9,704 nucleotides of DNA from a virus (IMGVR_UViG_2537562013_000016:1-9704); one strand, 5' to 3'. Shown: positions 1 to 9,704, numbered from the stretch's first letter. A program made the numbers and translations. The notes: generated by a model from the letters alone, not told the origin.

Positions 1-596
1 TCCTTCATTTCTCGACGTTTTGGCCTAATATTACTATGTAGTGTCATGAAATCACGAAGATATTTATTCATCAGTTCTGTATCTGAAATTGAACTATGGA
101 ATTTTATTGATGCAAAAATATTTAAAGAGGGAACAAACCAATAATAAGCGGGCTCACCCCATATAACATTTTCACCATCTAACTCTTCATCAGCACTGTA
201 CAAACGATCATCACTTAAGGCAGAGTCAGAGCGAATACCATAAACTCCATTCCCATTTCCAATTGCTCGCCATAAAATTACAACATAATCGCCTGTGCTC
301 TCGTTACGCTCAATTCCCTTCAAGTAAACTTTTTTCCTTGAAGAATACCCGGGAGTATTGTCATCCCAAAGTAATGTATCTGCCAATGAAGTCCTACTTG
401 AGAACCAAGTATGTAAGGACTCCAGCATATCGGCCATCATCAACGGCTCATAATATGAATCACCTCTCTTATGGAATCCTAATTGTTTATATTTGAAAAA
501 AGTGACCAGTCCTTCGCTCATTTGCGCACCATTAGTTGAAGTTGAATGCTTCGATTTTAGAGAAAATCTAACCAGAAGAAGATGTGTGATGAACAT
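1..596 (-). CDS. Hypothetical protein, N-terminal part only (runs off the left edge); AT-rich cargo gene in the psu/cos-to-int variable region
   Basis: My own minus-strand translation shows an open frame with no stop from ATG 596-594 (AAGGA 9 nt upstream) or ATG 521-519 down to position 1; protein begins MSEGLVTFFKYKQLGFHKRGDSYYEPL... Absent from the ORF track because it has no in-window stop. GC is visibly lower than the P4-like core. No motif recognised. Confidence 0.5.
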   Translation of the reverse strand, partial: MFITHLLLVRFSLKSKHSTSTNGAQMSEGLVTFFKYKQLGFHKRGDSYYEPLMMADMLESLHTWFSSRTSLADTLLWDDNTPGYSSRKKVYLKGIERNESTGDYVVILWRAIGNGNGVYGIRSDSALSDDRLYSADEELDGENVIWGEPAYYWFVPSLNIFASIKFHSSISDTELMNKYLRDFMTLHSNIRPKRREMK

Positions 597-634
597 TTAA
601 TCATGTCCTTAAATTAATGCAACCTTCGTGCGCA

Positions 635-653
635 GTGCTTTCCCCGCCTCGCC
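635..653 (-). other. cos: cos site: 19-nt P2/P4-type cohesive end sequence
   Basis: Plus strand reads GTGCTTTCCCCGCCTCGCC, the exact reverse complement of the P2/P4 cohesive end GGCGAGGCGGGGAAAGCAC as I recall it; located just past the 3-prime end of psu as in P4. Confidence 0.8.
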
Positions 654-756
654 CGCCCGCTTTGCAGGGCGGTTTTAATGCAGTTGCACAGACACGCTCA
701 GACCGCGCCGGGAATGGCGCGGTTTGCAGAAAATGAGGCAGGGAAACGCATGCAAA

Positions 757-787
757 GCCATGCACCTTATCGATGCATGGCTTTTTT
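757..787 (+). terminator. Intrinsic terminator-like hairpin between cos and the psu 3-prime end
   Basis: GCCATGCA (757-764) / TGCATGGC (774-781) 8-bp stem, 9-nt loop, followed by TTTTTT (782-787) on the plus strand; on the minus strand the same hairpin is preceded by an A-run and followed by TTTG, so it may also weakly terminate the psu transcript. Confidence 0.5.
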
Positions 788-817
788 CAGTAAAATCGGA
801 CGGATTTTCGGGGAGTT

Positions 818-1390
818 TTACACAGACTGATGTGATGCCAGTTGCGCACTTTTACGCGAAAAAATCATGTTCTGCGCAGGGGTGAATTTTTCACGGCTGT
901 CATCCACCGAAGCCGCGTCAGGCCTGAATCCGATGGTCGTTAAAATGTCGCTATCCTGTGCGGAATAATTAATTTTTTCCCCCTTCGCAAGCCAGGACAG
1001 AAGGGCTTCACGCAGGGCATCTGTGGCACGCTGTATGGCACAGTTTCGGGCAATGTCCGTCAGTTCACTGTAGCCCATCAACTCCGGTGCCAGTGCGGCC
1101 GCCATTACTGTGCCGTGCTGCTGCATAAAATCATTCAGCCGGTCGCGGATGCTGATGTGCTGAACGGCTTCATGCGAACGAATATAACGACCGGCGGCCT
1201 GATTCACCTGCCATTTTCTGACTTCGATAATATTGCGTAATTCGTCCAGGCGACTGACGTTTCTGCCTTCTCCTGACAGAAGCCGCAGGTATTCCTGTTC
1301 GGCCGCTGCCAGCTCATTTTTGCGTTGCAGCCATGCTGCTTTGTTATTCTGACAGGTGTCAAAGGCCTGCTGTAAGGCTGTGCTTTCCAT
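818..1390 (-). CDS. psu: Psu polarity-suppression / capsid-decoration protein (190 aa)
   Basis: ORF track 818..1390 (190 aa, same size as P4 Psu); N-terminus MESTALQQAFDTCQNNKAAWLQRKNELAAAEQEY matches my memory of P4 Psu; last gene of the sid-delta-psu order, next to cos. Confidence 0.9.
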   Translation of the reverse strand: MESTALQQAFDTCQNNKAAWLQRKNELAAAEQEYLRLLSGEGRNVSRLDELRNIIEVRKWQVNQAAGRYIRSHEAVQHISIRDRLNDFMQQHGTVMAAALAPELMGYSELTDIARNCAIQRATDALREALLSWLAKGEKINYSAQDSDILTTIGFRPDAASVDDSREKFTPAQNMIFSRKSAQLASHQSV

Positions 1391-1463
1391 CGTTATCTCT
1401 TTCTCATCATGCTGAAGAATAAAAATACGGTGTGCGGCGACGGCCGGTGTTAACCGGCAGCCC

Positions 1464-1964
1464 TCATTCCAGACGCAGCGAATATGATTGTGTTTTTAAG
1501 CGTACTGGCGGCAGTTCCTGTTTTTCATACAGGCGTTCTGCCAGTTCGTCCGGCGTGACCGGGCGGACAATGAAACGGTTGATGGTCTGAAGCGTTTTAA
1601 ACACCAGACCACAGCCCGGATCCGTGCACACATAAAAACGCTCGGTGACTTCCTGAGACAGACGCCGCGATGTTCTTGACAGTGCAAGGCCTTTACATCT
1701 CCGACAACAATATCCGGTAACAAGCATTCTTTTCGGGCGTTTCATACTGCCGGAGGCTGACGTCAGTGAATCGCGGTATCTCTGTTTGCCTGAAATGTAT
1801 TCCATTCCTGAATCTTTACTGTCAGAGAAAAAGCTTTCACTCGCTTCAAATGTCGCAGAGCAATAAATATTCCGGCACTGTGCAATCATTATCTTGGTGC
1901 CATCGTCCATGAAATGTGCGCGACGGGTGTGAGCAACATGTCCACACGACGGGCAGTAAATCAT
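1464..1964 (-). CDS. delta: Delta late transcriptional activator (duplicated Ogr-type zinc finger, 166 aa)
   Basis: 166 aa as in P4 Delta; two Cys-rich repeats (CPSCGH...CRNIYC and CCRRC...CTDPGC) typical of a fused Ogr dimer; ATG 1964-1962 overlaps the sid stop 1963-1961 (ATGA overlap, translational coupling). Confidence 0.9.
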   Translation of the reverse strand: MIYCPSCGHVAHTRRAHFMDDGTKIMIAQCRNIYCSATFEASESFFSDSKDSGMEYISGKQRYRDSLTSASGSMKRPKRMLVTGYCCRRCKGLALSRTSRRLSQEVTERFYVCTDPGCGLVFKTLQTINRFIVRPVTPDELAERLYEKQELPPVRLKTQSYSLRLE

Positions 1965-7992: not shown

Positions 7993-8117
7993 TGAGTTAA
8001 CGTGCGTGAAGATGCGTGTAAAAATTAATCGATAGATATTATATGTATAAGGATGTGTATAAATGAATTAGAATAGAAAAATATAAACGATTTAAATCAA
8101 ATGGTTATATGTCAATT

Positions 8118-8140
8118 TTGACTCCTGTGATCTTCCGCCA
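8118..8140 (+). other. att core: last ~21-23 nt of tRNA-Sec (selC), in attP-type context between crr and int
   Basis: TTGACTCCTGTGATCTTCCGCCA matches the T-arm/acceptor 3-prime end of E. coli selC (...GGTTCGACTCCTGTGATCTTCCGCCA) as I recall it, with one mismatch at the 5-prime edge; the sequence upstream is AT-rich and does not continue the tRNA, so this is not a tRNA gene. Confidence 0.65.
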
Positions 8141-8250
8141 ATTAACATCTTCTGAACTCTCCCGATGTCAACCACCCTTTCTAATCCCTTGTATATCAGG
8201 ATTCCTTTGTATCCAGAAGTCAACCGACTTCACCCCGTATCAAGTTGCTT

Positions 8251-8404
8251 TTGGGGGTACTTTAGGGGGTATTATTTCCTATTGAAATATCAGCACCCCC
8301 ATAATTGGTAAAATATGATATATAACAACGGCTTTCAACAACATCTTTGTTATACAAGGGGTGCATTGGGGGTATCAGGTTAATTACTGGCAGAAGTCCC
8401 CCTC
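8251..8404. repeat. Candidate integrase arm-type binding repeats (TTGGGGGTA-like) between att core and int start
   Basis: GGGGGTA at 8253-8259, 8265-8271, 8368-8374; inverted or variant copies near 8294-8303 and 8397-8404. A GGAGG ribosome-binding site for int follows at 8429-8433. Confidence 0.4.
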
Positions 8405-8438
8405 AGGAACATGAATTCATTAAAAGCCGGAGGATGTC

Positions 8439-9630
8439 ATGGCATTAACCGATATTAAAGTGAAAACCGCAAAACCAAAAGAAAAGCCCTATAAACTTGC
8501 TGATGGCGGCGGTATGTATCTACTGATTAACACTAATGGTTCTAAATACTGGCGTATGAAGTACCGCTTTGCTGGTAAAGAAAAGATGCTTTCTATTGGC
8601 GTATACCCCGATGTAACGCTAGCCGACGCTCGTGAAAAACGCAGCGAAGCCAGAAAAATCCTCGCTGCTGGAGGCAATCCAGGGGTGGCAAAAAAAGAAG
8701 AAAAAATCGCGCAACAAATGAGTTTGAAAAATACGTTCGAGGCCATTGCTCGCGAATGGCATCAGTCAAAAGCCGATCGGTGGTCATTACGCTATCGTGA
8801 TGAAATCATTGATACCTTTGAAAAAGACATTTTTCCCTACATTGGCAAACGCCCTATCGCCGAAATCAAACCAATGGAGTTACTGGAAGCACTGCGTAAA
8901 ATGGAAAAACGTGGAGCTCTGGAGAAAATGCGCAAAGTCCGCCAGCGCTGTGGTGAAGTGTTCCGCTATGCAATTGTTACTGGTCGGGCAGACTACAACC
9001 CTGCTCCCGATCTTGCCTGTGCTTTAGCTACACCGAAAAAAGTACATTTTCCCTTTCTTACTGCTAATGAACTTCCCCACTTCCTCAACGATCTGGCGGG
9101 TTATACCGGAAGTATCATCACTAAGACAGCTACTCAGATCATTATGTTAACTGGTGTACGAACACAAGAATTACGTTTCGCACGCTGGGAGGATATCGAT
9201 TTTGAGACAAAATTATGGGAGATTCCGGCAGAAGGTAATGAAGATGAAGCGACCTCATATTGTGCCGCTCTCTGAGCAGGTCATTGCCCTATTTAAGCAA
9301 CTTGAACCCATCACAAAACATCATCCTCTGGTCTTTATCGGTAGGAACGATCCTCGCAAGCCAATTAGTAAGGAAAGCATTAACCAAGTCATTGAATTAC
9401 TGGGATATAAGGGAAGACTCACAGGGCACGGTTTCAGACACACCATGAGTACCATTCTGCACGAACAGGGCTTTAATTCCGCCTGGATTGAAATGCAGTT
9501 AGCTCATGTGGATAAAAACGCCATCAGGGGTACCTATAATCATGCCCAGTATCTCGATGGTCGCCGTGAAATGATGCAGTGGTACGCAGATTATATTGAT
9601 TCGCTTTATAAGCAAGAGAGTCAGGGTTAA
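8439..9630 (+). pseudogene. int: P4-type tyrosine integrase interrupted by a single-nucleotide frameshift near 9234-9240
   Basis: Track ORFs 8439..9275 (278 aa; P4-integrase-like N-terminus MALTDIKVKTAKPKEKPYKLADGGGMYLL, box I Arg in TGVRTQELRFARWEDIDF) and 9154..9630 (158 aa; HGFRHT and catalytic Tyr in RGTYNH) overlap in different frames; 1192 nt from start to stop is not a multiple of 3; frame 1 stops at 9273-9275. Confidence 0.85.
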
Positions 9631-9670
9631 GAGCACTTGTCCTGATATTTTCTCTCAATCCACAAATTCT

Positions 9671-9704
9671 CCTCCGGCCTCCAGGTCCGGAGGAATTTTG
9701 TTTT
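9671..9704 (+). terminator. Terminator-like hairpin after int
   Basis: CCTCCGG (9671-9677) / CCGGAGG (9687-9693) stem followed by AATTTTGTTTT to the window end. Confidence 0.5.

Follow-up and report, generated by a model that had tools for sequence, protein, structure and literature searches.

The stretch of DNA analysed here, the 9,704-nt sequence IMGVR_UViG_2537562013_000016:1-9704 (referred to as the window), is a compositional mosaic built largely on a P4-like satellite prophage. It is very probably part of an Escherichia coli-type chromosome at selC, the gene for tRNA-Sec, in which two mobile elements lie in tandem; on the same best explanation, positions 1-8141 (element 1) are most of a P4-like satellite prophage and positions 8142-9704 (element 2) are the beginning of another, separate island at selC, of the tia/leoABC type. 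The window is thus not a free satellite genome, and represents an ordinary P4-like satellite beside a second genomic island. Comparison with satellite phage P4 reveals that the arc joining cos to the cis replication region (crr), which carries the attachment (att) arms, the integrase gene (int) and the cargo, has been replaced as modules with sharp breakpoints. The mosaic is a known property of P4-like satellites. An earlier note on this DNA had proposed module exchange at both ends of a satellite with a conserved core; this interpretation was right in general, and it stands for the conserved core, the swapped cargo and the incongruent history of int, while the int gene and the att region that it assigned to the satellite were misassigned.

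In a sliding profile with 400-nt windows, the guanine-plus-cytosine (GC) fraction climbs from 0.37 at both ends of the window to 0.665 within alpha, the primase-helicase gene. Maximum-likelihood binary segmentation resolves this profile into five blocks: 1-618 (0.37), 619-2838 (0.54), 2839-3265 (0.37), 3266-7666 (0.59) and 7667-9704 (0.42). The breakpoints at 618, 2838, 3265 and 7666 have likelihood-ratio statistics of 42, 40, 90 and 100, respectively; as these compare with a mean of 6 and a maximum of 18 in a null of 200 codon-block shuffles, the heterogeneity in GC is far beyond chance. The sliding profile and the values for individual features (Table 1) are therefore far from uniform, and bear out the contrast between AT-rich ends and a GC-rich core that had been noted by eye. 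The GC-rich core is not uniform, as it is interrupted by a deep trough at 2839-3265 (0.372) that the earlier note did not mention, and psu and delta are merely at the level of the host, for which the genes around selC in a related genome have a GC of 0.489 and a third-codon-position GC (GC3) of 0.543. The composition of P4 itself follows the same profile, with values of approximately 0.62 in alpha, 0.40 in the trough at the replication origin (ori) and 0.37-0.39 in att and crr.

Alignment of the window to circularised P4 (NC_001609 / X51522) shows 98.1% identity over positions 630-7989, from cos to the outer edge of crr, with no P4 similarity to the left of 630 or to the right of 7989; at both positions identity falls sharply from 98% to none. 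The homology starts 5 nt past the end of the 19-nt sequence at 635-653, which we take to be the P2/P4 cohesive end, and it ends with crr, whose two repeats match each other in self-comparison and form the last P4-homologous DNA. Between these limits the core gene order of P4, psu through crr, is retained, and the alpha proteins share 98.8% amino-acid identity. The least conserved part of the core is the AT-rich ori/promoter stretch at 2630-3129, where identity to P4 is 92% while other parts reach 97-99%; the rep_origin feature of P4 (9086-9809) maps by coordinates to 2469-3192 of the window. Element 1 reads, in order, PDC-M18A, cos, psu-delta-sid, ori and promoters, vis, immunity RNA, epsilon, orf151, cnr, alpha, crr and attR arm, and its right end is a 22-nt copy of the selC 3' end. 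It holds the adjacent psu/delta/sid operon, and alpA/vis, epsilon and alpha in P4 order as judged by Pfam and P4 annotation, all from the core set of P4-like satellites (int, psu, delta and sid, plus alpA, epsilon and alpha; Moura de Sousa & Rocha), as well as the P2-type cos that characterises these elements.

The composition and exchange boundaries coincide at the left (618 and 630) and disagree at the right, where the compositional boundary at 7666 falls just past the alpha stop codon, 323 bp inside the P4-homologous core. Since crr, a conserved replication element that is itself AT-rich (GC approximately 0.42), lies within that core, composition alone is no marker of exchange boundaries. 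The right-hand block is AT-rich in part because the window has by then left the satellite altogether.

Outside the core, the cos-to-crr arc of P4 (gop-beta-cII, a leuX-type int of 439-440 residues and the attP core GAGTCCGGCCTTCGGCACCA) has been wholly replaced by PDC-M18 cargo and a selC-type att. The closest relative of element 1 is the selC prophage of E. coli 14EC007 (NZ_CP024131), which is 99.7% identical over positions 1-8141 and has the same cargo and the same attR; its order is selC, int (395 residues), PDC-M18B, PDC-M18A, cos, P4 core, alpha, 22-nt att core and host DNA. The first 521 nt of the window are 100% identical to the start of a 361-residue coding sequence at 9001-9521 of the 14EC007 locus, and comprise only its first 173 codons. 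In that locus, PADLOC assigned the full 361-residue protein to PDC-M18A (E=1.9e-34) and its 173-residue neighbour to PDC-M18B (E=3.3e-16), with the two genes adjacent between cos/psu and int; a Pfam search of both proteins gave no hit, so PADLOC alone named them. These matches make the pair a candidate defence system, and a catalogued occupant of the P4 defence hotspot between psu/cos and int (Rousset et al., 2022, PMC9122126), in which PDC-M18 is listed as Rousset system #4 (PMC11754643, Table 2). The position in the window, immediately beyond cos/psu, is that of the P4 hotspot with no substantive difference. Cores sharing no less than 97.6% identity carry three unrelated cargos: gop-beta-cII in P4, PDC-M18 in the window and 14EC007, and an anti-phage dCTP deaminase in the P4-like prophage in the region of the enterocyte-effacement locus (LEE) of O157:H7. 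The PDC-M18 cargo region of an uncultured Cedecea sp. (L039) clusters with that of the E. coli satellite while their alpha proteins are only 79% identical, a case of the same cargo on diverged cores in different genera.

To test the proposed module exchange, for which the earlier note had named a comparison of int and alpha phylogenies, 80 loci encoding relatives of alpha were fetched, one genome per species, and the 56 elements with both int and alpha, including P4, 14EC007 and O157, were analysed. Four integrase types, each corresponding to the neighbouring target, can be distinguished: selC (15), leuX (9), thrW (6) and ssrA, the gene for transfer-messenger RNA (tmRNA; 26). Identities are 66% or higher among members of one type and do not exceed 66% across types (median 38%). 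Att type requires 26 Fitch changes on the alpha tree, where the minimum possible is 3 and random labels require 26.4, and only 3 on the int tree. Alpha and int identities have a Mantel correlation of 0.067; in 51 pairs an alpha identity of at least 90% goes with an int identity of at most 45%, and the reverse pattern (alpha no higher than 62%, int no lower than 80%) is seen in another 51. The phylogenies of int and alpha are therefore incongruent across the 56 elements, as the proposal of exchange had predicted. Cargo is almost always different from element to element, with 29 regions forming 26 clusters. The sid and psu genes correlate with alpha (r of approximately 0.5-0.57); however, sid identity is 40% or lower in 29 of the 68 pairs whose alpha identity reaches 90% or more, so the core, too, is divisible, and swapping seems to extend to the capsid-size module. 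In the subset of elements whose alpha proteins are near-identical (loci L009-L049, alpha approximately 84% identical to that of the window), Sid is bimodal, with either approximately 60% or approximately 30% identity to P4 Sid. Module exchange in P4-like satellites is already published, and our results agree with that work, in which the integrase tree likewise differs from the other trees (PMC8628076).

Two causes would together account for the mosaic. The first is the modularity documented above: in the circular form of P4-like elements, the cos-to-crr arc (att arms, int and cargo) is exchanged freely among satellites and other islands and is AT-rich everywhere, while the core is inherited more coherently, with a coding part that is GC-rich and, on average, 6 points above the host flank. 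The second is function: judging from P4 biology, the troughs at 2839-3265, 7667-7989 and 7990-8438 would be replication origins, promoters and recombination arms. Sites of replication, transcription and recombination are typically AT-rich. Approximately half of the AT-rich DNA in the window is non-coding cis-acting sequence (ori, crr and att arms), and exchange is not needed to explain its composition.

A mosaic of purely functional or selective origin, with AT-rich cis sites and a selection or mutation bias acting on weakly expressed or H-NS-silenced genes in the absence of any exchange, draws on the same observations, in that three of the AT-rich stretches are non-coding and cis-acting, one of which (crr) is part of the conserved core. 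The family-wide values (Table 1) also have the look of constraint and not of history. Cargo GC is 0.30-0.38 whatever the cargo, with the exception of one element at 0.44, and is below that of the host flank in 26 of 26 elements; int GC is independent of the host flank (r = 0.01) and stays near 0.46 while the flanks span 0.44-0.61. By contrast, alpha GC tracks the host flank (r = 0.55), sits approximately 6 points above it, and exceeds int GC in 56 of 56 elements. We nevertheless consider an origin without exchange very improbable: the abrupt loss of P4 identity at 630 and 7989, the three unrelated cargos on near-identical cores, the random distribution of int types on the alpha tree and the 26 cargo clusters among 29 elements show exchange directly. 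Constraint may explain why the exchanged material is AT-rich.

It is a tentative suggestion that the AT-richness of the exchangeable arc is a host-independent invariant of the whole P4-like family. If true, an 11-kb satellite would be made up of two compartments evolving at different tempos: a core adapting to the clade of its host, and an arc supplied by a pool common to the Enterobacterales. The arc would either never ameliorate or be selected to be AT-rich, for instance for H-NS silencing. The terms 'GC content', 'GC-content' and 'AT-rich' were not found in the main comparative papers on P4-like elements that were searched (in PMC8628076 only 'GC content' was searched), and a literature search on the GC content of P4 yielded nothing specific; the mosaic is visible in the P4 record itself. 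The family-wide GC figures are a small quantitative addition to what is already established, namely a swappable defence cargo by cos, integrases exchanged with islands, and a conserved core for hijacking and replication.

The right-hand end of the window is where the earlier note was mistaken. It had taken 7993-8438 as one att region and the gene at 8439-9630 as the integrase of the satellite. The former is a hybrid of the attR arm of the satellite, a 22-nt selC core at which the satellite ends on its right and the island begins, and the int-proximal arm of the island; the latter encodes the integrase, here frameshifted, of a distinct selC island that follows attR in tandem. With the exception of one G, positions 8120-9704 are identical to the DNA right after selC in enterotoxigenic E. 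coli (ETEC) H10407 and in sequence type 131 (ST131) strains, where the 396-residue integrase heads the tia/leoABC island (selC-int-...-leoABC-tia) and no P4 genes are nearby. In H10407 this is the selC-proximal end of the pathogenicity island (PAI) tia (ROD-20; integrase WP_001218920.1), an island at selC that has been described (PMC7545054); the window differs from it in the extra G and in having the satellite between the island and selC, and the remainder of the island falls beyond the window. The integrase lies directly downstream of the selC 3'-end sequence (core at 8120-8141, start codon at 8439), with the same spacing as in H10407. The extra G, at 9233/9234, splits the gene into open reading frames (ORFs) at 8439-9275 and 9154-9630; removal of one G restores a 396-residue ORF, and only one gap interrupts the alignment to H10407. 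In the intact orthologue, Pfam recognises the arm-binding, central and catalytic domains of a P4-family tyrosine integrase (Arm-DNA-bind_3, Phage_int_M and Phage_integrase). We rejected a programmed frameshift between the two ORFs, as the difference is a single G and the gene is present at 99% identity or above in over 100 genomes; in the best-matching of these genomes it is a single 396-residue ORF.

The position of the satellite's own integrase, on the psu/cargo side, is to the left of base 1; in the 14EC007 prophage it is occupied by the 395-residue int adjoining selC, and its counterpart here would likewise lie beside selC, outside the window. The AT-richness of the satellite int is therefore not to be read from the gene in the window, which belongs to the island; it holds by proxy through the int of 14EC007, with a GC of 0.429. 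This integrase shares 70% amino-acid identity with that of the selC island and approximately 39% identity with P4 Int, which suggests, on the basis of these comparisons, exchange with other islands. The motifs ATATGTATA and ATGTGTATA occur both in the attR arm at 7990-8119 and in the attL arm that adjoins int in the 14EC007 prophage. The island side has four arm-type motifs of the form GGGGGT(A/G), at 8251, 8263, 8295 (inverted) and 8366, which resemble the annotated P4 arm repeat TTGGGGGCA. The motif sets thus differ across the core, with (A/G)TGTATA to the left, as in the 14EC007 attL arm, and GGGGGT(A/G) to the right. The two selC-specific systems, satellite and island, appear to use different arm codes.

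Could the window instead be one circular or phage-form P4-like satellite, as the earlier note had it, with alpha, attP and int contiguous and a foreign AT-rich integration module at 7993-9630 in place of that of P4? In circular P4, alpha/crr, attP and int are indeed contiguous in this order, the integrase is of the P4 family type, and P4 homology stops at 7989, close to the start of the proposed module. We regard this as highly improbable, because the 14EC007 satellite ends at 8141 with a different int at its other end, positions 8142-9704 are identical to the selC-proximal end of an island without P4 genes, and the int is frameshifted. A free circular satellite would have both arms and the int of a single element; here the arm motifs flanking the core differ, the left set matching the attL arm of the satellite, and the integrated copy uses another int. 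An integrase next to alpha is moreover a signal of a neighbouring element (Moura de Sousa & Rocha, PMC8628076). The variant in which 8439-9630 is the satellite's own int, seen in the excised form, was rejected on the same evidence.

Tandem elements of this kind are known in finished genomes. The P4-like prophage of the O157:H7 LEE region, known as 933L in the older literature, has a core that is 97.6% identical to that of the window and the same tandem layout (selC-int-cargo-P4-like-att-int-LEE), with a second integrase right after attR; it differs in its cargo, and its downstream LEE-type integrase has 90% nucleotide and 96% amino-acid identity to the int of the window. In 14EC007, by contrast, attR is followed by host DNA and not by an island. 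At least 80% of the junction region was found in 29 complete genomes, including O145:H28 strains, at approximately 90-92% identity. Neither the window as a whole nor its exact junction turned up in complete E. coli genomes or IMG/VR; the closest matches are 14EC007 over 1-8141, O157:H7 over 630-9613 (96.6%), and H10407 and ST131 over 8142-9704.

Several points weigh against the reading of an exchanged satellite in tandem with an island. The window contains neither selC nor the satellite's own int, so that the tandem layout is deduced from near-identical relatives, and none of the 5,426 complete E. coli genomes searched, nor IMG/VR, contains the combination of a PDC-M18 satellite with a tia-type int. 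From the sequence alone, misassembly across the repeated 22-nt core is conceivable. The extra G at 9233/9234 may be genuine and inactivating, or it may have arisen as an error in sequencing. The functional account of the non-coding troughs draws on P4 annotation and general knowledge, and the survey uses a single genome per species and neighbour-joining trees on p-distances. An assembly artefact at 8120-8141, which would join satellite attR and island attL contigs that are not adjacent in the real genome, is in keeping with this missing combination and with a join that falls on a repeated sequence; it is scarcely credible, given that tandem adjacency is the only possible layout for two elements at selC in one genome, that the same layout occurs in finished O157 and O145 genomes, and that a repeat of 22 nt is as a rule too short to mislead an assembler.

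If the tandem layout is as described, the satellite could still excise by attL x attR recombination through its own Int and Vis, leaving selC joined to the island, and the island integrase would be inactive if the extra G is genuine; element 2 as seen here would comprise the int-proximal arm of the island and an integrase carrying a 1-nt insertion. If the window were annotated as a complete satellite, both its integrase and its att site would be wrongly assigned, and the tandem array at selC, a locus where pathogenicity islands such as LEE, PAI tia and SHI-2 also reside, would be missed.

Table 1. Features of the window, with their GC and the corresponding median GC across the P4-like family. 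Coordinates are positions in the window; E, expectation value.
Feature	Coordinates	Strand	Basis	GC in the window	Family median GC
Host flank					0.529
Satellite int					0.464
Cargo gene, 5' part (173 codons), PDC-M18A-like candidate defence protein	1-521	-	Continues past the left edge	0.376 (GC3 0.318)	0.341
cos	635-653	-	Reverse complement of GGCGAGGCGGGGAAAGCAC; matches P2-family cos regions at 630-695		
psu (polarity suppression / capsid decoration)	818-1390	-	Pfam Psu, E=2e-87; P4 psu under the match	0.522	0.550
delta (Ogr/Delta zinc-finger late activator)	1464-1964	-	Pfam Ogr_Delta, E=7e-22; P4 delta	0.489	0.527
sid (capsid size determination)	1961-2695	-	Collinear with P4 sid, 244 residues, 98% nucleotide identity	0.578	0.546
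sid-vis intergenic region				0.417	
AT-rich trough: ori repeats and divergent sid/vis promoter region	2839-3265		GC segmentation	0.372	
vis/alpA (ORF88), excisionase and regulator	3247-3513	+	Pfam Phage_AlpA, E=7e-21; P4 ORF88		
Immunity region, Ash/Icd-like ORF	3510-4109	+	Pfam Phage_ASH, E=6e-24		
CI-type antisense RNA	3770-3857; target repeats 3572-3624		Rfam C4, 74.9 bits; c4-a1b1, 49.5 bits		
epsilon (helper derepression)	4102-4389	+	Pfam Derepression, E=9e-51		
orf151	4382-4837	+	Collinear with P4 ORF151		
cnr (ORF106, copy-number control)	4973-5293	+	Pfam DUF5375, E=5e-63; P4 ORF106		
alpha (primase-helicase)	5308-7641	+	Pfam Zn_Ribbon_Prim, Toprim_3, D5_N, Pox_D5; most GC-rich block	0.612 (GC3 0.716)	0.591
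Terminator and crr				0.417	
crr (cis replication region)	7688-7989		Two 120-bp repeats, 7688-7807 and 7870-7989; P4 crr 4291-4590		
attR arm of the selC-specific satellite	7990-8119		Identical in the 14EC007 prophage, not in P4	0.254	
att core, 22-nt copy of the tRNA-Sec (selC) 3' end	8120-8141	+	GACTCCTGTGATCTTCCGCCAA; right end of the satellite, left end of the island		
Island int-proximal arm and promoter region	8142-8438	+	Identical to the DNA directly following selC in ETEC H10407	0.414	
selC-island integrase, tia/leoABC PAI type	8439-9630	+	+1 frameshift, extra G at 9233/9234	0.446 (GC3 0.423), frameshift removed	

The remaining observations concern individual features and the survey loci. 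ARAGORN found no complete tRNA gene in the window, which contains only the 22-nt selC fragment. Within the P4 immunity region, Rfam isrK, a Hfq-binding small RNA first described in Salmonella, scores 69.7 bits at 3585-3662, overlapping the C4 target repeats. Of the 56 complete elements, 8 (L012, L025 and L003 among the loci concerned) have a second integrase no more than 2.5 kb downstream of alpha, and in three of the 8 the distance is approximately 750 bp or less; tandem arrays at the tRNA/tmRNA sites of satellites are therefore common in our sample. Four short contigs (L006, L007, L008 and L041) with alpha 98-99% identical to that of the window come from metagenome-assembled genomes labelled Ferruginibacter, Clostridiales, 'bacterium' and Ruminococcus, and are most likely mis-binned E. 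coli DNA. Upstream of int in L047 and L050, ARAGORN called a 'tRNA-Stop(tta)' for the Pantoea selC-type target and an abnormally long tag peptide for one tmRNA, both of which are probably miscalls.

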